Assembly: GCA_009917695.1 (NCBI GenBank) | Contig: JAACJG010000011.1 | Location: 1 to 28,996 of the forward strand | From: Candidatus Rifleibacterium amylolyticum | Lineage (GTDB): Bacteria > Muiribacteriota > Ozemobacteria > Ozemobacterales > Ozemobacteraceae | DNA length: 28,996 nt | Direction of reading: 5' to 3' | Shown here: in pieces, positions 7,911 to 21,895 of the stretch | Layout of the letters: every line of letters starts with the position of its first letter | Position numbering within the stretch: the stretch's first letter is position 1 | Position numbers and translations under genes: made by a program | Notes under the pieces: generated by a model | Told to the model about the DNA's origin: nothing | The model's input: only the letters and a program-made list of their open reading frames with translations | The model's database searches: none

Positions 7911-9362
7911 TTATTCGGGTTTCTGGAAGTAGTTTATATCGGGTTTGCGGGCAGCCGTAGCTTCGTCAAGGCGGCGCACCGGCGTTTTTGTCGGCGCATT
8001 CTTGAGGTTGTCAGGGTTTTCGGCAGCTTCGCGCGCAATCATTTCCATGGCTTCGCAGAAACAGTCAAGCGTGCCCTTGCTTTCGGTTTCGGTTGGTTCG
8101 ATCATCATCGATTCTTCGACGATCATCGGGAAATACACGGTAGGTGCGTGAAATCCGAAATCAAGCAGGCGCTTGGCAACGTCGAGGGTCTTGACGCCGT
8201 GTCTGGCGAGACCTTTTCCCGACAATACGAATTCATGCTTGCAGAAGCGATCGTAAGGCAGATCGAAGGTCTTTTTGAGGCGCTGCATCATGTAGTTAGC
8301 GTTAAGAACCGCATAGGCAGAGACATTTTTGAGACCTTCGCGGCCGTTGACCAGAATGTAGGCAAAGGCGCGCACGAGCACGAGGAAATTGCCGAGCGAT
8401 CCGAGTACCGGGCCGACCGACTCGCGGCATTTGGTCTGCAGGCGGTATTTTTTGCCGTCGAACTGAATGCGCGGGTTGGGCAGAAAGGCCTCGAGATGCT
8501 TCTTGACGCCGACCGGGCCGGCGCCGGGGCCGCCGCCGCCGTGTGGAGTTGAGAAGGTCTTGTGCAGATTGAGATGCACGATGTCGAATCCCATGTCGCC
8601 CGGGCGGGTCCAGCCCATGATGGCATTGAGATTGGCGCCGTCATAGTAGACGAGGCCGTCGACCGAATGCACCAGGTGAGCGAGTTCACCGATATTTTCG
8701 TCGAACAGGCCGAGTGTGTTGGGGTTGGTGATCATCAGACCGGCGATATCGGGGCCGAGTTTCGATTTGAGGTCTTCGATATCGACGCCGCCGCGCGGGT
8801 CGGACTTGATGTTTACGACTTCGTAGCCGACCATCGAGCACGACGCCGGGTTGGTGCCGTGGCCGCTGTCAGGAATCATGATTTTGGTCTTGTGATTGCC
8901 TTTTTTGCGGTGATAAGCCTTCATGATCAGCAGGCCGGTGAGTTCGCCATGGGCGCCGGCAGCTGGCTGCAGCGTGATGGCATCCATGCCGGTAATTTCT
9001 GCAAGCGACTCTTCAAGGGTCTTGAGCATCTGCAGGGCGCCCTGCACACTCTCTTCAGGCTGCTGCGGGTGCAGGTTGGCAAATCCCGGCAAACGCGCCA
9101 TGTTTTCGTTAACCTTGGGGTTATACTTCATGGTGCAGGAACCGAGCGGGTAAAAGCCGATATCGACGCTGTGATTCAGTCGCGAAAGGCGTGTGAAATG
9201 CCGAACTACATCGAGTTCAGACATCGACGGCAGCGGCAGTTCTTCACGCAGAAAGCGGGCCGGAATATGGTCAGCTGGATCGACTTCAGGAACATCGAGC
9301 GCCGGCAGCGTAAAGCCGCGGCAGCCATCTTTCGACAGGTCAAAAATCAAGGGTTCAGCCAT
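7911..9362 (-). CDS. gcvPB: glycine dehydrogenase (decarboxylating) subunit 2, C-terminal half of the P-protein
   Basis: A 483-aa PLP-fold protein of typical GcvPB length and motifs ([18 protein letters not shown]). Overlaps gcvPA by 8 nt. Confidence 0.9.
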
Positions 9363-10701
9363 TGATAAACCCTCCTAACAGGTTGCAGTAGTTGTCGATT
9401 TCGTCTTTGCTGCGTTTTTCGGTAACAGCTACCAGCACGCAGTCTTTGAGATTCGCAAACCAGTTGTCGAGCGGAATGCCGGCAAAAACGCCATGTTTGG
9501 CCATTTTGCCGAGTACTTTGCGGGCGTTGGGGATCTTAACGACCAGTTCATGGAAGAAGCTGCCGGTAAACGGGAAGGTAACGCCATCAACCTTTGCGAG
9601 TTCGCGTTTGAGGTAATGCGCTTTCTGGAAACACTGGCCGGCTACTTCGCGAATGCCTTCGCGCCCCATCAGGCTCAAATAAATGGTTGCGTTGAGAGCC
9701 ATCAGCGCCTGGTTCGAGCAGATGTTGCTGCTCGCCTTTTCACGTCTGATATGCTGTTCGCGGGCCTGAAGAGTGAGCACAAAGCCGATTTTACCATCGA
9801 TATCGGTAGTTTTGCCGACGATACGACCGGGCATTCGGCGCAGCAACGCTTTTTTCGAAGCAAGAAAGCCGACGTAGGGGCCGCCAAAGCTGAGCGGAAT
9901 CCCGAGTGGTTGCCCTTCGCCGCAAACGATGTCGGCGCCAAGCTTCCCGGGGGTTTCAAGCAGGCCGAGAGCAATCGGGTTGGCGACGACTATTGCAAGA
10001 GCACCCGCTTCATGAGCAACTTCCGCAATTTTTTCGATATCTTCGATGCAGCCGAGGAAGTTCGGATACTGCATGACAACTGCTGCAACCTGGTTGTTCA
10101 GCATTTCATGCACTTTGGCCGGATCGACGACGCCGTCTTCGAACGGCACGCTGACAATTTCAGCTCCAAGCGGAGTGTTGAGCGAATTTATGACGCGGCG
10201 GTATTCCGGATTAACCGTCTGCAACACGAGAACCCGGTTGCGGCGGGTCTGTGCTGTCGCCATGTTGATGGCTTCGACAGTTGCGGTTGCGCCCTCATAC
10301 ATTGAAGCATTGGCCTGATCCATGCCGGTCAGCCCGCAGATCAGACTCTGAAATTCGTAGATACACTGGAGAGTGCCCTGCGAAACTTCTGGCTGATAGG
10401 GAGTGTAGGCCGTAAAAAAGTCGCCGCGCAGCAGCAGATGGTCGATTGCCGCCGGGATAATGTGATCGTAGGCTCCACCGCCAAGAAAACAGACCTTGTC
10501 ATCGACGGTCTCGTTGCTCTGTGAAAGGCGGGTCAGCTTTCTCGTCATTTCGGGCTCACTCATTCCTTCTGGGATGTTGAGGTCGCCCTGAAGCCTTAGT
10601 TCAGGCGGAATTTCGGCAAAAAGATCGTCGATGGTCTTTACGCCGATGGCCCCGAGCATTTCCTGCACTTCGGCAGGAGTTGTGGGGATATAGTTAGCCA
10701 T
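9355..10701 (-). CDS. gcvPA: glycine dehydrogenase (decarboxylating) subunit 1, N-terminal half of the P-protein
   Basis: 448 aa starting [25 protein letters not shown], the typical GcvPA N-terminus. Positioned between gcvH and gcvPB. Confidence 0.9.
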
Positions 10702-10719
10702 AAGACAGCTCCTGTCGGT

Positions 10720-11079
10720 TTATTCGCAGATTTTTTTGTAGTCAGCTTCTGAAAGCAGTGTGTCGTATTCCTTGGAATCAGCGACCTTGATTTTAACTAT
10801 CCAGCCGGCATCCATCGGAGACTCGTTGACCAGAGCCGGGTTGCCTTCGAGTTCGCTGTTGGTTTCAACGACTTCGCCGCTGACCGGGGCATACATGTCA
10901 GAAACGGTCTTAACCGATTCAATGGTGCCAAAGGTCTTGCCAATAGTCAGTTTGCTGCCGTTTGCCGGAAGCTCGACAAAAACCACATCGCCAAGCTGGT
11001 GGGCGGCATATTCAGTAATGCCTACGGTTACCACGTTGCCATCGAGTTTTGCCCATTCATGTTCTTTTGTGAATCTCAT
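10720..11079 (-). CDS. gcvH: glycine cleavage system H protein (lipoyl carrier)
   Basis: 119 aa with the lipoyl-lysine motif ESVKTVSDMYAPVSGEVVETN. SD AGGAG upstream. Confidence 0.9.
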   Translation of the reverse strand: MRFTKEHEWAKLDGNVVTVGITEYAAHQLGDVVFVELPANGSKLTIGKTFGTIESVKTVSDMYAPVSGEVVETNSELEGNPALVNESPMDAGWIVKIKVADSKEYDTLLSEADYKKICE

Positions 11080-11093
11080 CTTGTAATCTCCTG

Positions 11094-12332
11094 TTAAATT
11101 GAGTAAAAGGGGAATTTTTTGCAGATTTCGTTTACTTTGCCCTTTACGGTTGCCAGATTGGCTTCGTCTTCGGGGGCAGTCAGTGCCTGATCCATCAGGT
11201 CCGCGATCTGGCTCATTTCATTGGGGGTCATGCCACGGGTAGTAACAGCCGGCGTGCCTACGCGCAGGCCTGAAGTGACAAAGGGCGACTGCGGGTCGTT
11301 AGGAATTGTATTTTTGTTAACTGTGATTCCGGCGTGATCAAGAGCTTTTTCAGCGAGTTTGCCAGTAACGTTCTTGTTGCGAACATCGATCAGCATCAGG
11401 TGGTTGTCGGTACCGCCAGATACGAGTCGGAAACCTTTGGCTGTAAGAGCTTTGGCAAGAGCCTGCGCGTTATCTATCACTTTTTTCTGGTATTCCTTGA
11501 ATTCGGGCTCAAGAGCTTCTTTAAAAGCGACGGCCTTGGCTGCGATTACATGCATCAGCGGGCCGCCCTGCAGACCAGGGAAAATCGCCTTATCGATCGC
11601 CTTAGCCCATTTCTCTTTGCAGAGAACAAGGCCGCCACGGGGGCCGCGCAGGGTTTTATGGGTTGTCGAGGTTACGAAATCAGCATAGGGTATCGGCGAT
11701 GGGTGCAGACCGGCAGCGACGAGGCCGGCGATGTGAGCCATATCGACACACATGACAGCATCGATTTCGTCGCAGACTTTGCGGATTCTTTCGAAATCGA
11801 TGATACGCGGGTAAGCAGAGGCGCCGACCATGATCATTTTGGCTTTATTTTCTACTGCCAGTTTGTGCAGCATGTTGTAATCAAGAGTTTCAGTGTCATC
11901 GGTAACGCCGTAAGGAACGACATTGTAGAGCAGGCCGCTGAAATTAACCGGGCTGCCGTGAGTGAGATGGCCGCCGTTCTGCAGGTTCATGCCAAGAAAG
12001 GTGTCGCCTGGCTTGAGAACGACCTGATATACGGCCATATTAGCCTGGCTGCCAGAATGTGGCTGTACGTTGGCATGTTCGGCGCCAAAAAGCTTTTTAA
12101 CGCGATCGCGAGCCAGGTTTTCGGCTTCATCGACGACTTCACAGCCGCCATAATAACGTTTCGCCGGGTAACCTTCGGCGTATTTGTTGGTGAGAACCGA
12201 GCCGAGAGCTTCGAGAACAGCTTCTGATACGAAGTTTTCTGAAGCGATAAGCTCGATCTGGCTCATCTGGCGATTTTTTTCGCGCCCGATAATTTCAAAA
12301 ATCTCGTTGTCGAATTCTTTAAGACTGCGCAT
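11094..12332 (-). CDS. glyA: serine hydroxymethyltransferase
   Basis: 412 aa with the SHMT signatures LIASENFVS and [12 protein letters not shown] (PLP-lysine). Confidence 0.92.
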
Positions 12333-12334
12333 TA

Positions 12335-13423
12335 TTAACTCCTTGCCCTGGTGTAAAATGGTGTTTCTATGACTGTAGCGGGATAATTCTTGCCGCGAAT
12401 TTCAATGTCGAAAACAGTGCCGATGGCGCTGAGCGCTGGCGGTACGTAGCCGAGTCCGATGTTTTTCTTGAGAGTCGGGGCCATGGTGCCAGAAGTCACT
12501 TCGCCAACGGTTTTGCCGTCTTTTACGATCGGGTAGCCGTGACGGGCAGCCGGGCCTTTACCCAGTTCAAAGCCGACGAGAGTCTTGCTGACGCCCTGTT
12601 CTTTCTGCTTTTTGAGCACATCGCTGCCGGTAAACGCGCCTTTGTTGAACTTTACGGTCCAGTTCAGATTAGCTTCGATCGGAGTTGTATTGTCACTGAT
12701 ATCGTTGCCATAGAGCATCAGACGTGCTTCGAGCCTGAGCGTGTCGCGGGCGCCAAGCCCTATGGGTTTGATTCCTGCCTCTTTGCCGGCTTCCATCAGA
12801 GCGTTCCAGAGCTTTTCTGAATGCTCGGCCGGGTAGTAGAGTTCGAAGCCTTCTTCGCCGGTATAGCCGGTGCGACTGATGATGCATTCTACGTCGAGAA
12901 CCTTGCCTGAGGTGAACCAGTAGAATTTGATGGGTTTGAGGCGCTGGCGGGTAAGCTTTTGCAGAATGGCTTCAGCCTGTGGCCCTTGAATCGCTATCAA
13001 GCCGGTGTTGTTCGACTGGTTGTCGAATTTAACATCGCCTTCGAGTTGGCTTTTGATCCAGTTGTAGTCTTTTTCGATATTGCTGGCGTTGACGACGAGC
13101 AGAAACTTTTCTGCGTTCCAGCGGTAGACGAGCAGGTCATCGACGATACTGCCATCGGGTCGGCACATCGGAGTATAAGCTATCTGGCGGTCAGAGAGAG
13201 CTTCGGCATCCTGTGTGACAATTTTTTGAACATTTTTGAGCGCGTCAGGCCCGGTCAGCCAGAATTCGCCCATGTGGAAAAGATCGAAAAGCCCGGCCGC
13301 CTCGCGCACGGCATTGTGCTCTTCGATGATCGAAGTATACTGCACCGGCATATACCAGCCCGAAAAATCGATCATTCGGGCGCCAAGTTTTTCATGCACT
13401 GCACACAACGGGGTCTTGTTCAT
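12335..13423 (-). CDS. gcvT: aminomethyltransferase, glycine cleavage system T protein
   Basis: 362 aa of the GcvT family (folate-binding, YTGEEGFEL motif). SD AGGAG. Confidence 0.88.
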
Positions 13424-13442
13424 TCTTATCTCCTTTGAGTTC

Positions 13443-15104
13443 TCATAAACCAGTTATATTGCCGTTTTCATCGACATCTATATGCTCGGCTGAAGGGGTT
13501 GCCGGCAGTCCCGGCATGGTCATGATCTCGCCAGCAATGGCGACGACAAAGCCGGCGCCGGCGCTCAGTCTGGCTTCGCGTATGGTAACTTCGAAACCGC
13601 TCGGCCGACCAAGCTTGTTAACAGTATCAGAGAGCGATGACTGGGTTTTGGCGATACATACCGGAACCTTGCGATAACCCAGTTTCTCGAACATTTCGAG
13701 GCTGTCTTTGGCTTTTTTCAGAATGGTTACGCTGCCGGCTCCGTAGCAGCAGCGCGCAATGACGTTAATTTTTTCAATAAGCGGCATTTCAAGCGGGTAG
13801 AGACAGGCGAATTCGTTTTTCTGACTGGCGATGACCTTTTCGATTTCTTTAGCCAGTGCCAGTCCGCCTTCCGGGCCTTTTCCATAAATATCAGCTTCGA
13901 CCGCAGCAACGCCGAGCTTTCGCGCCGCTTCGACTACCCAGGCAATCTCAGCATCGGTATCGCTGGCAAAGCGGTTAACCGAGACCACGCAGGGCACTCC
14001 GTAATGGCCGATGTTTTCGATATGTTTGGCGAGATTGTCGAAACCGGCTTTGACTGCCTGCAGATTCTCAGCATCAAGCTGATTTTTGGGAACACCGCCG
14101 TGCATCTTGAGAGCCCTTACCGTGGCGACTATTACTGCTGCGGCCGGTTTTAGTCCGCCAACCCGGCATTTGATATCGAAGAATTTTTCGGCGCCAAGAT
14201 CGGTGGCGAAGCCTGCTTCAGTAATCACAACATCAGCAAGTTTGAGGGCAAGCTTGGTGGCAACCAGACTGTTGCAGCCATGCGCGATATTGGCGAACGG
14301 GCCGCCATGAATCAAAACCGGCGTGGAATAGCGAGTCTGCACCAGGTTTGGCTTCATCGCCTCTTTGAGAATGGCGCACATTGCACCCTGAGCCTTGAAA
14401 TCACGGGCATAGATCGGTTCGCCCTTGCGGTTGAACGAGACAATCATGTTGCCCAGTCGCTCTCGCAGCTCGTTCAGGTCTTCAGAGAGGCAAAGGGCAG
14501 CCATGACTTCAGAAGCGGCAGTGATATCGAAGCCGGTCTCGCGCGGAACTCCATTTGCCGGGCCGCCGAGGCCAGATACGATACAACGCAGACTGCGGTC
14601 GTTCATGTCCATGACGCGACGGAATGGTGTTGACTTGGGGTCGATATCAAGCTGGTTGCCATGCTGAATGTGGTTGGCTACAAGTGCGGTTAGCAAATTG
14701 TGAGCAGAAGTTACCGCGTGAATGTCACCGGTAAAATGCAGATTGATTTCGGCCATCGGCTCGATCTGACTCTTACCGCCGCCGGTGGCGCCACCTTTGA
14801 CACCAAATACCGGGCCCATTGAGGGCTCGCGCAGACACAGCATGGTCCTGCGGCCGAGCGCTCGAAACGAGTCAGCCAGGCCGATGCAGGTCGTGGTTTT
14901 GCCTTCACCGGCAGGTGTCGGTGTCATTGCTGACACCAGAATCAGTTTGCCATCAGGATTACCCGCCAGCCGCTGTCGCGCCTTTGCCGATACCTTAGCC
15001 TTCATGCGGCCATAGGGTTCAATTTCGTCATGCAGAAGGCCAATTTCAAGACCGACGTCTTCAATCGGTCTAAGCCCTTCTTTAAGTTGCCTGTATTCTG
15101 TCAA
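13443..15104 (-). CDS. fhs: formate--tetrahydrofolate ligase (formyl-THF synthetase)
   Basis: 553 aa with the TPTPAGEGKTTT P-loop signature of FTHFS. TTG start preceded by a GAGGTGAGG SD. Confidence 0.9.
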   Translation of the reverse strand: MTEYRQLKEGLRPIEDVGLEIGLLHDEIEPYGRMKAKVSAKARQRLAGNPDGKLILVSAMTPTPAGEGKTTTCIGLADSFRALGRRTMLCLREPSMGPVFGVKGGATGGGKSQIEPMAEINLHFTGDIHAVTSAHNLLTALVANHIQHGNQLDIDPKSTPFRRVMDMNDRSLRCIVSGLGGPANGVPRETGFDITAASEVMAALCLSEDLNELRERLGNMIVSFNRKGEPIYARDFKAQGAMCAILKEAMKPNLVQTRYSTPVLIHGGPFANIAHGCNSLVATKLALKLADVVITEAGFATDLGAEKFFDIKCRVGGLKPAAAVIVATVRALKMHGGVPKNQLDAENLQAVKAGFDNLAKHIENIGHYGVPCVVSVNRFASDTDAEIAWVVEAARKLGVAAVEADIYGKGPEGGLALAKEIEKVIASQKNEFACLYPLEMPLIEKINVIARCCYGAGSVTILKKAKDSLEMFEKLGYRKVPVCIAKTQSSLSDTVNKLGRPSGFEVTIREARLSAGAGFVVAIAGEIMTMPGLPATPSAEHIDVDENGNITGL

Positions 15105-15116
15105 AGCCTCACCTCA

Positions 15117-16289
15117 TCACTTGTAATTGAGAAAATATTCCATGGTGGCGCTGATGCCGGCGCCAACCTGTTTGAGATAACCAGATTTTTTGAGCGTCAT
15201 CTCGAGCAGGCCGACAGTACCGAGAATATCGCGCTCGCCAATCGCGCCTATTGTGGTAATGCGCAGAAGCTTGGTTGCGAACTGTTCCTGTCCGCCTGCA
15301 ATAAGCACACCGTAGCGGTTGCGCAGTTCACTGACTATATCTTTTGGCGCGACGCCCTCCGGTGAGTAGAAAACTGTCAGCACATTGGAGGTTGCATCTT
15401 CGTCTGTAAAAAGGCGCAGATTCATTGCCTTGAGTGCGGCACGCAGACCGCCGGCCAGTTTATCATAATGTTTGAAGCAGTTTTCGATGCCGATGCGGTC
15501 GATCTTACGCAGTGCTTCGAGCAGCGAAAACATGACGTTGATGGCGGGTGTCCATGGATATGCCGGAATCGCGCCTTCCTGGTCTTTTTTGTAAATTTTC
15601 AGATCGAAATAATAGCCGTGGCACTTGACCTGTTCAACCTTGGCCCAGGCCTTTTCTGAGAGAGCGACCATGCCGACACCTGGAGGTGCCAGAAAGCCCT
15701 TTTGCGAGGCTGACACGGCGACATCGACATGCCATTCATCCATTTTAAAGGGGAGGGCTCCGATACCCGAAACGCCGTCGGTGATGAAAATCTTGCCTTT
15801 GTCTTTGAGAAACTTGCCAATAGCTTCGATATCGTTGCGAATACCGGTTGAGGTTTCGTTAAAAGTGACGGTAACGCCTGAAATCTCGGGGTTCTTTTCG
15901 AGAGCGGCAGCTATCTGCTCGACAGTTACACGTTTGCCGTCTTCACAGGCGAGCACGACTGTTTTTAGTCTGAATGCTTCGCAGATCCTGGTGAAGCGCA
16001 CGCCGAATACGCCAGTTTGAATGGTCAATACCGTTTCGCCTTCATTAAAAAGATTGGCGATGGCGGTTTCCATGGCACCGGTGCCAGATGAGGTTGTCAA
16101 ATAAAGCTTTTGCGTCGTGCCAAAGAATTTTTTGAGCAGAGTTACACATTCAGTGTATACCGGCGCAAAATCATTGGTGCGGTGGTGGGTAAGAGCGCGG
16201 GCTCCTGCCAGAGTTACTTCTGCGTCGAGGTGAACAGGGCCAGGGGTCATCAACAGGGTATCAATTTCCATGACAGTTCTCCATTCCAT
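15117..16289 (-). CDS. class V (AGXT-family) aminotransferase, serine--glyoxylate/serine--pyruvate or phosphoserine aminotransferase-like
   Basis: A PLP-lysine motif SASQKGF and AGXT-family similarity throughout. The likely true start is Met7 (16271), which has a better SD. Confidence 0.75.
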   Translation of the reverse strand: MEWRTVMEIDTLLMTPGPVHLDAEVTLAGARALTHHRTNDFAPVYTECVTLLKKFFGTTQKLYLTTSSGTGAMETAIANLFNEGETVLTIQTGVFGVRFTRICEAFRLKTVVLACEDGKRVTVEQIAAALEKNPEISGVTVTFNETSTGIRNDIEAIGKFLKDKGKIFITDGVSGIGALPFKMDEWHVDVAVSASQKGFLAPPGVGMVALSEKAWAKVEQVKCHGYYFDLKIYKKDQEGAIPAYPWTPAINVMFSLLEALRKIDRIGIENCFKHYDKLAGGLRAALKAMNLRLFTDEDATSNVLTVFYSPEGVAPKDIVSELRNRYGVLIAGGQEQFATKLLRITTIGAIGERDILGTVGLLEMTLKKSGYLKQVGAGISATMEYFLNYK

Positions 16290-16303
16290 TCCTTGTGTTT
16301 ATC

Positions 16304-17170
16304 TTATGATAATTTTTCTTTTGCTTTTAAAGTGTTGGCCAGCAGCATGGCGATGGTCATCGGCCCGACTCCGCCCGGCACCGGCGTGATATAACCGGCC
16401 CGCTGCGCTGCCGGTTCAAATTCTACGTCACCAACCAGCCGGTAACCTTTTGCTGACGCCGGGTCATCGACCGAGTTGATGCCGACATCGATAACGACAC
16501 TGCCAGGCTTAACCCATTCGCCTTTGACGAATTCCGGCTTGCCGAGTCCGGCAACGATAATGTCGGCGCCACTGATCAGGGCTGGCAGGTCGCGGGTGCG
16601 CGAATGGGCGACAGTCACCGTAGCGTTGGCTTTGGTCAGCAGCGCCGCCATCGGCTTGCCGACTATGTTACTGCGCCCGATTACGAGGGCAGTTTTCCCC
16701 TCAATCGGAACTTTGTAGCGCTTGAGCATTTCCATGACGCCCAGTGGTGTGCAGGGAACGAAGGTATCGACGCCGAGATGCAGATAACCGACATTCACCG
16801 GATGAAAACCATCGACGTCTTTGCGCGGATCAATTGTCTGCAAAGCCTCAGATTCGTTGAGATGAGAGGGCAGGGGAAGCTGCAGCAGAATGCCGTGAAT
16901 TTGCGGATCCTGGTTGAGCCGACGTATCTCGTCGAGCAGTCCAGCCTGCGTCGTCTGGCCATCGAGAGTGATTTCACGCGAATAGATACCGGCCTCTTCA
17001 CATGCCTTTTTTTTGGAGTTGACATAGACGCGCGACGCCTTGTTGTCGCCAACGATTATGACGGCGAGTCCGGGTGGTTTCTGCCCGGCGCTGGTCATTG
17101 TCTTGACCGATGCGGCGACTTCGGCCCGGATCTGCTGAGATAGCTGTTTCCCGTCGAGGATTGTGGTCAC
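16304..17170 (-). CDS. folD: bifunctional 5,10-methylene-THF dehydrogenase / 5,10-methenyl-THF cyclohydrolase
   Basis: A 288-aa FolD-family protein. GTG start with an AGGAG SD. Confidence 0.9.
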   Translation of the reverse strand: MTTILDGKQLSQQIRAEVAASVKTMTSAGQKPPGLAVIIVGDNKASRVYVNSKKKACEEAGIYSREITLDGQTTQAGLLDEIRRLNQDPQIHGILLQLPLPSHLNESEALQTIDPRKDVDGFHPVNVGYLHLGVDTFVPCTPLGVMEMLKRYKVPIEGKTALVIGRSNIVGKPMAALLTKANATVTVAHSRTRDLPALISGADIIVAGLGKPEFVKGEWVKPGSVVIDVGINSVDDPASAKGYRLVGDVEFEPAAQRAGYITPVPGGVGPMTIAMLLANTLKAKEKLS

Positions 17171-17200
17171 GGCAGACTCCTGTTAAATGATTTTCAGCCG

Positions 17201-17229
17201 AGTATAACGCTGTAAAAGTAAATAGGCAA
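17201..17229 (-). promoter_or_regulatory. candidate sigma70 promoter of folD–gcv operon (TTGCCT-N17-TATACT)
   Basis: The - strand reads TTGCCT, a 17-nt spacer, and TATACT, about 30 nt upstream of the folD GTG. Confidence 0.4.
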
Positions 17230-17455
17230 CCCTTATCTAAGAAATTCGCCCGAAGAAATACTCTATAGAGGCAAATCGCATGAAACTCGGTCGAAAGACA
17301 CAAACCGCCGATTCTCTCATCGCAAAGAAACAGGATTCCCTGTCATGTTTTGAAAGCTATGGGTTTATTAGAGACAGAGACAAAAAGTCTGGATATGGAA
17401 ATGGTTTGCTGATAGGATATGGCGATAGATCGATCGGACAGGGAGAGTGATTTAA

Positions 17456-18448
17456 GTGGAATCATGTGAGAAAACCCCGGTTTCGGGGAGAGAAATTATC
17501 GATATGGCCGGTCGCAAGGTGATCTTACCTGAAACCATCAATTCGGTTTTTGCCGGGTCATTTTATGGTTACACCATGCTTGCCTCGCTGGCGCCTGAGA
17601 TGATAGCCGCAACGCCAATGCCGGCGCGTGAATGCGATAAAAGGTATCTGCACCCGCACCTGCATGATCTGCCGGTAATCGAAAAAATTACCGAAGTAGA
17701 TGCACTGGCAAAGGTTAAACCCGACGTTATAGTAGTCTGGGCGGACAAGGAGCAGCCTTTTCATAAAAAGTCAGAGGCTGTTTGCGATTCTCTGGGTATT
17801 CCATTCGTGTATGCAATAGTTGGCAATCTTGGTGATGTCGAAGATTTTCCGGCAGCTTACGAGTTTCTTGGCAAACTGTTGGGGTGCGAAGCCCGTGCTG
17901 CACGCCTCGCCGAATATTGCCGGGAAACGCTCGCCGAGGTCACCACGGTGGTCGATCGCATACCTGAGCGCCTTAGACCTGGTGTTTATTATGCTGAATG
18001 TGAAAACGGGCTGGCGACTGAATTCGACGATTCGTTGCACGCTCATCTGTTTCGCCTGATGGGCGATGTCAATGTCCATCGAGGGCACATTGCCGAGCAT
18101 AAAGGTCTCGAACCGGTTACTTTCGAGCAGATAGAAGCTTATAACCCTGACGTGATAATTGCCTGGAGCCGTTCATTCGTAAAAAACGTCATGCTGGATC
18201 CTCGCTGGAACGAGATCAGAGCCGTTCGCAACCATAGGGTTTATCCGATTCCGAACGTTCCGTTCAACTGGTTCGACCGGCCGCCCTGCTTCATGCGGAT
18301 AATCGGTCTCAAGTGGCTTGCTCATCTGCTTTATCCAAATGATTACGCGGTCGACCTCGTCAAGGAGACCCAACAATTCTATGCATTGTATCTCGACAAG
18401 GAAATCTCAGCCGAAGAAGCCGGCAGAATCATCGCCCAGGAAACATGA
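17456..18448 (+). CDS. periplasmic-binding-protein fold (Peripla_BP_2, BtuF/FhuD-like cluster A) protein without signal peptide (predicted cytoplasmic)
   Basis: 330 aa with the typical N-terminus GREIIDMAGRKVILPETINSVFAG of corrinoid/siderophore-type substrate-binding proteins. The N-terminus is not hydrophobic, and an in-frame stop sits 3 nt upstream of the GTG start. The stop overlaps the next gene (ATGA). Confidence 0.65.
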   Translation: MESCEKTPVSGREIIDMAGRKVILPETINSVFAGSFYGYTMLASLAPEMIAATPMPARECDKRYLHPHLHDLPVIEKITEVDALAKVKPDVIVVWADKEQPFHKKSEAVCDSLGIPFVYAIVGNLGDVEDFPAAYEFLGKLLGCEARAARLAEYCRETLAEVTTVVDRIPERLRPGVYYAECENGLATEFDDSLHAHLFRLMGDVNVHRGHIAEHKGLEPVTFEQIEAYNPDVIIAWSRSFVKNVMLDPRWNEIRAVRNHRVYPIPNVPFNWFDRPPCFMRIIGLKWLAHLLYPNDYAVDLVKETQQFYALYLDKEISAEEAGRIIAQET

Positions 18449-19317
18449 TTGTCAGTGTCAGTCGGCGAACGGATATACCGGCTTTTTATCATGAGTGGTT
18501 TTACAACCGCCTGACGACAGGCTTTGTGCTGACAAGAAACCCGATGAATCCGGCGCAGATCCGGCGGGTTGAGTTGAACCCGGAAGAGGTTGACTGTTTT
18601 GTGTTCTGGAGCAAGAACCCGCAACCGTTTATGCAGAACTTCAGTCGGCTGAATGCTTATAAATACTACTTTCAGTTCACGCTGACGCCTTACGATCGTG
18701 ACCTTGAGCCCGGGTTGCCAGATAAAAGAGAGCTAATTGGGACATTTCGCGCGCTGTCAACTGAGATAGGCGCAGAAAAGGTTGTCTGGCGGTATGATCC
18801 GATAATCTTTACTTCGCGATACGATCTGCAATACCATGCCGGGCATTTTGCCTGGCTATGTGAGCAACTGAGCGGCTTTACTGAACGTTGTATCATCAGC
18901 TTTTATGACCACTACAATTTTGTCAGGCGCAATCTGAACGGCATCGAAATTTTGCCGGTTGACAGTGCCAGAATACGCGAGATTGCACTAATATTTGCCG
19001 AAACAGCCGGCAAAAATGGTTTGACGGTCGAAAGCTGCGCCGAAAGTGAAAACCTGGAAGAATTTGGTATCGCGCATGGGCGTTGCATCGATGACCGTTT
19101 GATCAACCGCATCTGCGGGCGCGATTTACATTTAAAAAGAGACCATGGCCAGCGCCCGTTGTGCGGCTGCGTTAAAAGCGTCGATATTGGCGCCTATTCA
19201 ACCTGCCTTCACGGCTGCCGCTATTGCTATGCGGCCAGGCAACGGCTTACTGCTGCACAGATATCGTCAAGACACGACCCCACAGCACCATTTCTGGTTG
19301 GCAATTCTACTAAATAG
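18445..19317 (+). CDS. DUF1848 family protein with C-terminal CX3CX2C cysteine cluster (putative Fe-S / radical-SAM-like)
   Basis: 290 aa with the characteristic N-terminus MIVSVSRRTDIPAFYHEWFYNRL and the C-terminal cluster CGC...CLHGCRYCYA (C-X3-C-X2-C). Translationally coupled to the upstream PBP-fold gene. Confidence 0.6.
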   Translation: MIVSVSRRTDIPAFYHEWFYNRLTTGFVLTRNPMNPAQIRRVELNPEEVDCFVFWSKNPQPFMQNFSRLNAYKYYFQFTLTPYDRDLEPGLPDKRELIGTFRALSTEIGAEKVVWRYDPIIFTSRYDLQYHAGHFAWLCEQLSGFTERCIISFYDHYNFVRRNLNGIEILPVDSARIREIALIFAETAGKNGLTVESCAESENLEEFGIAHGRCIDDRLINRICGRDLHLKRDHGQRPLCGCVKSVDIGAYSTCLHGCRYCYAARQRLTAAQISSRHDPTAPFLVGNSTK

Positions 19318-19319
19318 GT

Positions 19320-20633
19320 CTATCGGTTTGCGGGTGGGGTGACGGTGAAGACGACCTGTGACTGTAATCCCCATTTTTCGACACTCTGTTTGAGCACGTG
19401 GTATTTGCGGGCGTAATACCAGTCGCCGTCGTTGATGACCTTGTTCTGCAACATGGTTTGAATGTTTTTCAGCAGAGGCACCATGGCGAGGCGCTCGGCC
19501 GGGGCCATTTGATCAATCTCTTTCAGTAGAATCTCAAAGAGTTTGAATTTTTCGTTGGTAAACTCGCTGGAAACATTCTTTTCGACTCTGCCTTGAGCAT
19601 CATTCAGAGACTGACGGGCTACTTCATCGCCGGGGTTTTTGACCAACATGTGATGAGCGTCGAGCATGCGCTTTAAATTGCGTTTCAGTGGGAGTTTGGC
19701 GGTAATCTGGTAGACGATGATTTTTGCCACAACCGTCAGAATCTGGCTGCCCATATAGCCGCCAATAACGCTGCCGACACCGGGCGCGAGAACCGAACCA
19801 ACTGCCGCGCCAAGCGAAGCGCCGGTAACACTGACCAGACTTATTGATGCGCTTCTGAAAATCTGCAGAGCGAGAAAACTCAGAAGAGTTCGATCTTTCA
19901 TCGTCTGCTTGAAGATGTTTTTCAGACCCTGATTTTGTGCAGAAGCCTTAATCATGTCGTTAACCAGCCGGGTAAAGGCGACGGCCGAAAAGCTGCGAAA
20001 GGTTTCTGAGATTGCTTTCGACAGCACACCGATATTAAGCTGAGCAAGGAATTCGGTAAGCATGTCGAATGCCGGCGAGAGAGCGCCAGATGCCGCCAGG
20101 TGCGGCGTCTTTTTGAGCAGTTCGTAAGCCATGCGGTCGAGCGAAACAACTACCGAGCAGTTGTAGTTAAAGCTAAGCCCTGAACGGCTTTGCCTGATTT
20201 CAGAAATATAAAGATCGACCGAAATCTCGCTGTTGCTGGTGATTATGTAGCTGTCTTTATCTATGTTCCATGGCAGTTTGCCTTGAAAAAGCGCATTTCC
20301 ACTGAAAGACACAAAGTAGCGTCTGATTCTGGTGTCATAAAAAGAACTGTGCACCTGAACCGACAGGTTGTCTGTCTTATCGATTGCCAGCGCTAGTTTG
20401 CGTACCGTCTTGTCAAGCGCAGCAGCAGTTTTGACTACACTCTTTTCGACAGCTTCCGAGAATTTAACTCGAATCTTCTCGGTCGGCCGCATTTCAGCAG
20501 CATTGACAAAAGGTGCTGCAAGAAGGCTAAAACAGAGTATCAGGCATAGAAAGAGCCTGTTGCCAGGCTTTTTAAGACAAGATGTTATATTCATGCAATA
20601 CCTCTTTTCAAGATCCGCAGAATGCTGCGACAC
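19320..20633 (-). CDS. secreted hypothetical protein with internal glycine-zipper segment
   Basis: 437 aa with a signal peptide after Met14 (MNITSCLKKPGNRLFLCLILCFSLLAAPFVNA) and a glycine-zipper segment GASLGAAVGSVLAPGVGSVIGGYMGS. It has no recognisable enzyme domain and lies 38 nt downstream of the C11 peptidase gene. Confidence 0.5.
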   Translation of the reverse strand: MSQHSADLEKRYCMNITSCLKKPGNRLFLCLILCFSLLAAPFVNAAEMRPTEKIRVKFSEAVEKSVVKTAAALDKTVRKLALAIDKTDNLSVQVHSSFYDTRIRRYFVSFSGNALFQGKLPWNIDKDSYIITSNSEISVDLYISEIRQSRSGLSFNYNCSVVVSLDRMAYELLKKTPHLAASGALSPAFDMLTEFLAQLNIGVLSKAISETFRSFSAVAFTRLVNDMIKASAQNQGLKNIFKQTMKDRTLLSFLALQIFRSASISLVSVTGASLGAAVGSVLAPGVGSVIGGYMGSQILTVVAKIIVYQITAKLPLKRNLKRMLDAHHMLVKNPGDEVARQSLNDAQGRVEKNVSSEFTNEKFKLFEILLKEIDQMAPAERLAMVPLLKNIQTMLQNKVINDGDWYYARKYHVLKQSVEKWGLQSQVVFTVTPPANR

Positions 20634-20671: not shown

Positions 20672-21895
20672 TTACTTGATGCCGAGCTGACGCAGGTCGA
20701 GCATTTCGTCCCATTTGCTGTCGCGCGACATGTCGAGAGCCTTGTAGAATCGGCGATATTTGGTGTAATCAGCCTTTTCTGGCCAGGTGATGCTGATCGT
20801 GCCGCGGCGGGTGACCCTGGCTGCTTCGACTGCATCCATGAGGTCTTTGCCCATCTGCTTGATTACAGCACGGTTGCTGGCACCGTTTAGCTCAGAATTT
20901 TCGCGGTAGAACGCCTCGGCAACCTTGTAGAGGTCCCAATAGTTGGTGCCTTTGCCAAAAGAAGCCTGATTGCGCAGACCAAAGTTCTTAGAAGTTTCTT
21001 CGATGGCATTAAGAAGTTGCATGGCGAGCTGGTTGACTGCAAAAACCAGCTGAGCGGAATTGGCCGTTTTCCAGGCACCGATCAGGCTGCTGTTAAGACG
21101 TTCTGCCATGTCGGTGGCAAATTCAGTCGGTGTGAAAGTTGAATTGCGGCTCATAAAGCGTGCCATCGCGTCGTAATTGAAGCCGCTGATCGGTGTTGTT
21201 TCTGGACTGCCGACCATGAAATCACAGGCATCGCGCAACTGATAGAGCACTTCAACGCTGCCGGGCATGCAGGCGTCGAAAGCCACGAGATCGAATTTTC
21301 CACCATTTTTGTAGCGCTGATTGAAGACTTTCAAGACTTCGGCAACTTCGAAAATCGTCAGGGCGTCTTTGTCGGTGTGGTCGTAAGCTACGAAACGGCC
21401 CGATTTGCGGTCGGGGTTGAAATCTACCTTGCCGGGTTCACCAGCGCTGACAGAGCCTTCGCCCCACCAGGTGAACACACCGCTGCCGTGACTGTTGATT
21501 ACAAGAGCATAATGTTTGGCAGGGTATTTTTCCTGAGCCCATTTAAGGCAATCCCACAGAGTTTGCGGTGAACCCATATTAACTTCGCCGAGCACGCCCT
21601 CGTCGATCAGTTTGCCTTTTTCGACGCGTAGACGGCTGCCGCCCTTGTAGTTGAGCTTCTGCTCATCTGATGAACCGCTCGACATTCCGTCGATCTGCAC
21701 CAGCAGCTTGTGATTCTCGCCTGAACCATAATTCTTGAGATAGCCGAGATTGCGAAAATTGGCATTTTCAAGAACCGTATCCTTGTCATCGTTTACCATA
21801 TAGACGATGACAGTCCATTCATTTATGGCCATAACGCTTGTTGGCTGAGCAAAAAGGGAACAAAGGGCAATCAGAACCGCAAAGATTTTTTTCAT
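20672..21895 (-). CDS. secreted clostripain-like cysteine peptidase, family C11
   Basis: 407 aa with a signal peptide (MKKIFAVLIALCSLFAQPTSVMA), the N-terminal WTVIVYMVNDD, a catalytic His in ALVINSHGSG and a catalytic Cys in LVAFDACMPGS. Confidence 0.75.
   Translation of the reverse strand: MKKIFAVLIALCSLFAQPTSVMAINEWTVIVYMVNDDKDTVLENANFRNLGYLKNYGSGENHKLLVQIDGMSSGSSDEQKLNYKGGSRLRVEKGKLIDEGVLGEVNMGSPQTLWDCLKWAQEKYPAKHYALVINSHGSGVFTWWGEGSVSAGEPGKVDFNPDRKSGRFVAYDHTDKDALTIFEVAEVLKVFNQRYKNGGKFDLVAFDACMPGSVEVLYQLRDACDFMVGSPETTPISGFNYDAMARFMSRNSTFTPTEFATDMAERLNSSLIGAWKTANSAQLVFAVNQLAMQLLNAIEETSKNFGLRNQASFGKGTNYWDLYKVAEAFYRENSELNGASNRAVIKQMGKDLMDAVEAARVTRRGTISITWPEKADYTKYRRFYKALDMSRDSKWDEMLDLRQLGIK

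Follow-up and report, generated by a model that had tools for sequence, protein, structure and literature searches.

The closest described counterparts of the two genes considered here are, for the first, the cluster-A (class III) substrate-binding proteins of ATP-binding cassette (ABC) importers, among them the vitamin B12 binding protein BtuF, and, for the second, DUF1848 proteins reported beside UG25 reverse transcriptases (RTs) with an N-terminal methyltransferase domain (Mestre et al., PMC9226505). A further point of reference is ThiC, a non-canonical radical S-adenosylmethionine (SAM) enzyme that gives a precedent for [4Fe-4S] ligands contributed by the C-terminal segment of a barrel enzyme (PMC4389238). 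We analyzed a stretch of 28,996 nt from Candidatus Rifleibacterium amylolyticum (contig JAACJG010000011.1, positions 1 to 28,996; hereafter, the window), in which the gene for a leaderless Peripla_BP_2 protein is followed on the same strand by a gene for a DUF1848 protein (Table 1). A preliminary description of the pair had proposed a functional unit, in which the binding protein delivers a ligand to an Fe-S enzyme. Results here favor another explanation: these are probably two independent genes that are neighbors by common descent in one Riflebacteria subclade, and not a conserved functional module.

This explanation draws foremost on the distribution of the pairing. We screened 160 DUF1848 loci (80 from species-representative genomes and 80 from metagenomes; 126 of the 160 with more than 1.1 kb of upstream sequence) with a tblastn search of the window binding protein (E ≤1e-3). 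A binding-protein gene was found beside DUF1848 only in Riflebacteria, at loci L011 (the same stretch as L092) and L091, and at none of the other loci screened. Further paired Riflebacteria loci (L007/L008 and L171) were reached via the binding-protein side. A Pfam scan of 28 tightly linked upstream neighbors of DUF1848 detected Peripla_BP_2 only in the Riflebacteria one. All paired loci share their flanks, with folD and a glycine-cleavage cluster to the left and, where the contig reaches, a 424-aa gene and a Peptidase_C11 gene to the right; hence, they appear to derive from one evolutionary event inherited in one Riflebacteria subclade. At the same syntenic position in L009 and L010 (DUF1848 75% identical, HGW-Riflebacteria-1 type), only a 300-nt spacer separates folD from DUF1848, and the binding-protein gene is missing. 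Identity matrices place the L005 binding protein about as far from the paired binding proteins as the L009 DUF1848 is from its paired counterparts. In the lineage of L009, the binding-protein gene may lie at an importer locus instead, if L009 and L005 belong to one genome. Since the pairing is confined to one Riflebacteria group, the genes are probably neighbors by descent and not a working pair, and the ligand-delivery pair proposed earlier reduces to a single syntenic locus that lacks the binding-protein gene in L009 and L010.

The ATGA overlap between the stop codon of the binding-protein gene and the start codon of DUF1848 is real, but the translational coupling read from it is not a shared trait, as the overlap was found in this genome only. 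The corresponding spacers in relatives measure 124 nt in L091 (88% identical), 58 nt in L007, 46 nt in L011, and 10 nt in L171, compared with -4 nt in the window. In these relatives, the binding-protein gene ends with ...CAGGA(A/G)(A/G)CATGA, and the spacer is followed by ...ATGATTGT(C/T/A)AGTG. The window junction, ...CAGGAAACATGATTGTCAGTG, is exactly what a deletion of all sequence between the two ATGA tetramers would leave. Judging from these junctions, the overlap looks like a recent change, in which the intergenic spacer would have been lost by deletion between the two ATGA repeats, or an assembly quirk. It now forces co-translation and has no bearing on ancestral coupling.

The DUF1848 protein is an ordinary member of a large, anaerobe-centered family. 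It matches PF08902 at 355.4 bits over profile positions 1-262 of 262 and is 100% identical to NCBI GQF41_3352. The family comprises at least 8,000 clusters at 90% identity and, in the genomes sampled, occurs only in anaerobes (Clostridia, Bacteroidota, Desulfobacterota, Spirochaetota, Negativicutes, Akkermansia, Chlorobium, and Elusimicrobia). As the preliminary description stated, DUF1848 has no established function; the family is wholly uncharacterized, and our literature search found it mentioned only in passing, with no mention of PF08902. The window protein has every invariant family residue: R8 and D10 (of the SRRTDIPA motif), W18, R22, D118, P119, and seven cysteines. These cysteines (C198, C214, C240, C242, C254, C258, and C261) are each kept in at least 145 of 146 distinct DUF1848 sequences (35-88% identity), and Y260, Y262, and A263 in all 146, so the cysteine cluster noted earlier is a trait of the family. 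An AlphaFold2 model (pLDDT 92, pTM 0.91), with strands alternating with helices, suggests a beta/alpha barrel. A Foldseek search of this model against the Protein Data Bank (PDB) returned weak generic triose-phosphate isomerase (TIM)-barrel matches only, none of them significant, and sequence and profile searches of the PDB yielded no solved relative.

Against a viral structure library, Foldseek gave scattered weak radical SAM matches and one match to a segment of a crAss-like phage polyprotein. The latter was the best viral match (BFVD A0A7M1RU68_5, from a 1,278-aa protein of uncultured crAss-like phage cr272_1; E = 2e-10, query TM 0.65), and a DUF1848-like domain may, going by the model comparison, be embedded in this large phage protein.

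The C-terminal cysteines invite comparison with radical SAM enzymes. The motif had been given as CGC-X10-C-X3-C-X2-C-YA and called canonical; it is real and C-terminal, although the first spacing is X11. Residues 254-261 of 290 (C254-X3-C258-X-Y260-C261) follow the radical SAM CX3CX(aromatic)C pattern, and the loop after strand 1 reads SRRTDIPAF, with no cysteine. No match to the radical SAM core (PF04055) was obtained at E ≤0.01. When the family was compared by hhalign with an alignment of pyruvate formate-lyase (PFL)-activase-like radical SAM proteins, only YSTCLHGCRYCYAARQ aligned, to FKGCLLKCVWCHNPET, over 16 columns and with a probability of 1.5%; the counterpart of the DUF1848 motif was the CX3CXWC of these proteins. 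Profile-level homology to radical SAM activases was accordingly rejected beyond this 16-residue motif. The word canonical therefore fits the pattern and overstates the relationship. Given that the motif alone matches, with neither PF04055 nor a solved relative, we use "radical-SAM-like" as a sensible working model for a protein whose motif is non-canonically placed, and not as demonstrated membership. That the cysteine motif resembles the one of radical SAM proteins is reportedly pointed out already in the Pfam description of the family.

Under this working model, the CX3CX(Tyr)C segment could, like that of radical SAM enzymes, ligate a site-differentiated [4Fe-4S] cluster, while C198, C214, C240, and C242 could be the ligands of a second cluster or of a zinc ion. 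Alternatively, DUF1848 would not be of radical SAM type at all but a generic TIM-barrel hydrolase or lyase, with cysteines that bind zinc or a structural or redox Fe-S cluster in the manner of Fe-S DNA glycosylases and nucleases. The generic barrel matches and the missing PF04055 match are what this alternative would predict, and the near-invariant CX3CX(aromatic)C pattern is what the working model would predict; we consider the alternative possible, if somewhat unlikely.

Genomic context elsewhere gives a further indication of what DUF1848 acts on. Open reading frames around DUF1848 were called with a crude greedy caller, and the four nearest neighbors were clustered. In 56 of 68 genome loci, the upstream neighbor and DUF1848 share a strand, and in 28 they are at most 50 nt apart. 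The sole recurrent partner is a SAM-methyltransferase-like domain (GCG motif I; weak Methyltransf_31/23 matches; PADLOC "methyl transferase" C3a159), which is encoded immediately 5' of DUF1848 in approximately 30 of 146 loci, a count that includes near-duplicate gut contigs, usually with a 4-nt overlap. The partner is either free-standing (~290-450 aa; Bacteroidales, Prolixibacteraceae, Xylanibacter, Akkermansia, Clostridium, Sarcina, and Sedimentibacter) or fused, forming residues 956-1174 of a 1,213-aa UvrD-type helicase with an N-terminal RNase-H1-type hybrid-binding domain. Moreover, the PADLOC accessory model RTasDUF1848 of defense-associated reverse transcriptase (DRT) systems matches the window protein over its full length (4.9e-46, 155.5 bits). 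Because the partners are methyltransferase-like, helicase, and RT proteins, the substrate of DUF1848 would most likely be nucleic acid, subject to base modification or repair by radical chemistry, and not a corrinoid or metal cofactor. The window itself gave no match for the methyltransferase-like gene, and its DUF1848 looks like a stand-alone housekeeping copy.

Several of these loci are of interest in their own right. In human-gut contigs (L102:49-5867; also L105, L106, L110, and L113), genes for a tetratricopeptide repeat (TPR) protein, the 1,213-aa helicase, and DUF1848 form an operon, the last overlap being 4 nt. The best PADLOC match of the TPR protein, which is encoded 5' of the helicase, is to TPR repeats fused to a cold-shock-like domain. 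The TPR/UvrD-methyltransferase-like/DUF1848 operon looks like an undescribed defense or nucleic-acid-modification module. At L026:5129-6861 and 11 other loci (L049, L029, L055, L057, L087, L090, L125, L140, L015, L024, and L096), from Bacteroidota, Akkermansia, Clostridium, and Sarcina, the methyltransferase-like gene directly 5' of DUF1848, which in many cases overlaps it by 4 nt, encodes a free-standing, cysteine-rich protein of ~290-360 aa with absent or very weak Pfam matches. At L104:6054-6977, L134, L135, and L168, a gene 100-200 nt 3' of DUF1848 encodes a canonical, PFL-activase-like radical SAM protein that contains a ferredoxin-type insert; in all, a radical SAM gene is found 3' of DUF1848 in five metagenome loci, with an HD-domain gene just 5' in three of these and in two others.

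The first gene of the pair encodes a cluster-A substrate-binding protein, as had been proposed. Its product matches Peripla_BP_2 (PF01497) at 57.3 bits, above the cut-off of 27.5 (E = 2e-15), and its nearest solved structure is PDB 4pag ("periplasmic binding protein"; E = 3.3e-52, residues 12-321 against 4-317), an entry that was not mentioned in the literature searched. The NCBI record (KAF1080183.1, 330 aa) has the identical start, and a Shine-Dalgarno-like GGGAGAG lies 8-14 nt 5' of the GTG. The in-frame TAA is the codon immediately 5' of this GTG, and an upstream extension is therefore impossible, which excludes a missed start with a signal peptide. No signal peptide was found on direct reading of the other frames of the intergenic region. 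The N-terminus, MESCEKTPVSGREIIDMAGRKV, has neither a hydrophobic h-region nor a lipobox and leads directly into the conserved start of the mature domain; in ~345-aa homologs from Desulfobacterota, Syntrophia, and Geobacter, a classic signal peptide ends just ahead of the same REITDMAGRKV.

The lack of an export signal, observed in the preliminary description for this one protein, extends to all Riflebacteria orthologs (P0121-P0137; 60-88% identity, independent assemblies): none of the approximately 17 has a signal peptide, lipobox, or twin-arginine motif. Over the N-terminal 40 residues, their maximum 10-residue Kyte-Doolittle mean is ~1.0-1.7, compared with mostly 2.2-3.7 in exported homologs. 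Canonical signal peptides do occur in Riflebacteria, and the second binding protein of L005 begins with MSKSYLKLLTTLLILLIFSATLVSAEE. An alignment of 121 binding proteins contained 52 leaderless sequences and 69 with a signal peptide, indicating that the leaderless state recurs in this subfamily. Ratios of nonsynonymous to synonymous substitution (dN/dS) relative to an 85%-identical relative were 0.085 for the binding protein and 0.093 for DUF1848, consistent with purifying selection on both, and both genes are thus functional. The lineage of leaderless binding proteins is genuine and conserved, and purifying selection acts on it.

By origin, the binding protein would be a signal-peptide-less descendant of binding proteins that serve TonB-receptor/FecCD-type metal-chelate importers. 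Its ligand is most likely still a small one of metal-chelate type, now bound inside the cell, where the protein may hold or buffer importer cargo. This role is inferred, for a protein whose fold family, leaderless N-terminus, and conservation are established, as is the position of one ortholog and of one exported homolog beside importer genes. A TOBE (molbindin-like) protein gene at L005 and moeA at L004 hint that the ligand class of the subfamily may be molybdate, tungstate, or another metal chelate. The BtuF name in the NCBI record was rejected: there was no match to the NCBIfam BtuF model at E ≤0.01 and no cobalamin riboswitch. The best NCBIfam matches are to ferrichrome, heme, and Fe-dicitrate binders and lie far below threshold (26 bits against a cut-off of 374). 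Rfam searches returned nothing at E ≤1 in positions 17000-19500, and at gathering score only tRNAs in the window and nine related loci, with no cobalamin or molybdenum cofactor (Moco) riboswitch. With these results and the nucleic-acid enzymes found beside DUF1848, the corrinoid or metal-cofactor handling suggested for the pair loses its support.

The binding protein could also work with a FecCD/ABC importer encoded elsewhere, either after non-classical export or at the membrane, its adjacency to DUF1848 being incidental. Its closest unpaired ortholog (L005, 73% identical) adjoins FecCD, ABC_tran, and TOBE genes, and exported homologs of 50-57% identity are found in TonB/FecCD/ABC operons. At L005:3935-9127, the exported Peripla_BP_2 gene is divergent from the leaderless ortholog, and the TOBE protein is 69 aa long. 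The acidic lobe residues of the window protein, D82 and E224, which we equate by motif, and not by structure superposition, with the permease-docking E72 and E202 of BtuF, are likewise kept: the two positions are acidic in 44 of 52 and 46 of 52 leaderless sequences, compared with 66 of 69 and 67 of 69 exported ones. Their retention keeps a transport-linked role in play and argues against drastic neofunctionalization. However, the leaderless N-termini of the Riflebacteria orthologs and the stop codon directly 5' of the GTG speak against export, and at L005 the importer is already served by an exported binding protein of its own, whose signal peptide is canonical. Leaderless export is not known for class III binding proteins. 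The 29-kb window has no FecCD or importer-type ABC ATPase gene, in line with the earlier statement that no permease or ATPase genes are adjacent. A transport role of this kind seems unlikely.

It is unlikely that the binding protein acts in the cytoplasm and passes a corrinoid, siderophore, or metal cofactor on to DUF1848, be it in Riflebacteria alone. This reading can draw on the same-strand adjacency in five Riflebacteria genomes, with spacers of -4 to 124 nt, and on the 3.2-kb distance between the two genes in L001; on the lack of an export signal in any ortholog and the purifying selection on both genes; and on DUF1848 being probably an Fe-S enzyme. Nonetheless, the paired loci represent one syntenic locus and one event, with DUF1848 alone there in L009 and L010, and leaderless orthologs without DUF1848 occur in at least six other contexts (Table 1). 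Outside Riflebacteria, no such neighbor was seen in the screen, and the recurrent DUF1848 partners are nucleic-acid enzymes. Neither a cobalamin or Moco riboswitch nor a BtuF model match was found. Very unlikely, in our assessment, is the fuller version, in which an export-signal-less binding protein was recruited in Riflebacteria as a cytoplasmic carrier supplying a metal chelate or cofactor to DUF1848, itself a permuted radical SAM enzyme; if it were true, the conserved adjacency would mark a lineage-specific two-protein system.

Some observations weigh against the view that the two genes are independent neighbors by descent, or against the roles assigned to their products. In five distinct Riflebacteria genomes, the two genes share a strand and have short spacers between them, and the binding proteins of these genomes show 67-88% identity to that of the window. 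In L001 (about 52% identical), both genes lie on one strand at a distance of 3.2 kb, and the three genes between them are on the opposite strand; in L176, the closest relative of L001 among the loci examined, DUF1848 is absent within 7 kb. Conceivably, selection of some kind keeps both genes together in Riflebacteria. The tblastn screen, run with this subfamily at E ≤1e-3, could miss very divergent Peripla_BP_2 proteins. Moreover, the retention of D82 and E224 in leaderless proteins is no less compatible with a transport role than with a cytoplasmic one, and the nucleic-acid role of DUF1848 is drawn from context in approximately one-fifth of loci, most DUF1848 genes being without such a partner. 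On balance, we still regard shared descent of two independent genes as the more probable explanation.

The surroundings of the pair in the window are in part shared with other Riflebacteria loci. On the minus strand, positions 7911-17170 hold contiguous genes for glycine-cleavage P subunits, GcvH, SHMT, GcvT, formate-tetrahydrofolate ligase, a class-V aminotransferase, and FolD. Several Riflebacteria (L007, L009, and L171) have this gene set conserved, and it matches a (reductive) glycine/C1-folate module. Downstream of the pair, beyond the Peptidase_C11 gene, lie genes for a PALP enzyme and a subtilase. PHROGs profiles gave no match for the binding protein or the DUF1848 protein, and a promoter and terminator consensus scan showed nothing usefully above background. 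Coordinates of the main features, together with the contexts of binding-protein relatives that lie away from DUF1848, are collected in Table 1; at L174, the contig ends with no DUF1848 start in the 156 nt 3' of the binding-protein gene.

Table 1. Features of the DUF1848 locus in the window and genomic contexts of related binding-protein genes located elsewhere
Feature	Position in window	Strand	Remarks
Intergenic region between divergent folD (-) and binding-protein gene (+)	17171-17455	.	285 nt; in-frame TAA at 17453-17455
Binding-protein gene, leaderless Peripla_BP_2 (cluster-A/class III) homolog	17456-18448	+	330 aa; GTG start; stop TGA at 18446-18448
ATGA overlap, binding-protein stop/DUF1848 start	18445-18448	+	Specific to this genome
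DUF1848 protein, predicted beta/alpha-barrel Fe-S enzyme	18445-19317	+	290 aa; ATG start
C198 and C214 codons, candidate ligands of a second metal site	19036-19038, 19084-19086	+	Conserved in 146/146
C-terminal cysteine cluster, C240-G-C242-X11-C254-X3-C258-R-Y260-C261-Y262-A263	19162-19233	+	At least 145/146 per residue
437-aa protein, convergent	19320-20633	-	No Pfam match; ends 2 nt from DUF1848 stop
Peptidase_C11 (clostripain-like) gene	20672-21895	-	Conserved with the 437-aa gene across Riflebacteria loci L007, L009, and L011
L005 ortholog			73% identical; beside exported Peripla_BP_2, FecCD, ABC_tran, TOBE (molbindin-like) protein, and DUF364
L006 and L172 orthologs			62-68% identical; beside two Band_7 genes and an ABC exporter pair
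L174 ortholog			63% identical; directly after SbcCD
L176 and L177 orthologs			About 52% identical; orphan
L004 leaderless relative			43% identical; TonB-dependent receptor, MoeA, and two exported paralogs
L175 exported homolog			57% identical; TonB-receptor/Band_7/FecCD/ABC_tran operon

As the evidence points to an inherited neighborhood and not to a new system, the gene pair itself matters little. Both proteins are further members of known families, and their interest lies at the family level and is not specific to this window. DUF1848 is a large, anaerobe-centered, and uncharacterized family, and its seven invariant cysteines include a motif of radical SAM type at the chain end opposite to the usual one. 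From its recurrent association with methyltransferase-like, helicase, and RT proteins comes the testable hypothesis of a radical enzyme directed at nucleic acids. The conserved leaderless class III binding proteins, for their part, raise the question of an intracellular role.

Compared with described systems, each protein shares some features with its nearest counterparts and departs from them in others. The window binding protein has its Pfam family and general fold class in common with BtuF, but it is without btuCD neighbors, a cobalamin riboswitch, or an export signal. With cluster-A importer binding proteins as a whole it shares full-length homology and an acidic residue kept on each lobe, although, unlike them, it has neither a signal peptide nor a lipobox, and no permease or ATPase gene is present in the window. 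DUF1848 differs from the radical SAM superfamily (e.g., PFL-activating enzyme, HemN, and spore photoproduct lyase) in that its motif is C-terminal and not placed after strand 1. ThiC, with its CX2CX4C motif, belongs to a different barrel family; no sequence relation between it and DUF1848 was found, and the likeness is one of analogy. Unlike in UG25/DRT systems, no RT, helicase, or methyltransferase-like gene adjoins the DUF1848 gene of the window, and what its product has in common with the accessory DUF1848 proteins of those systems is the protein family itself.

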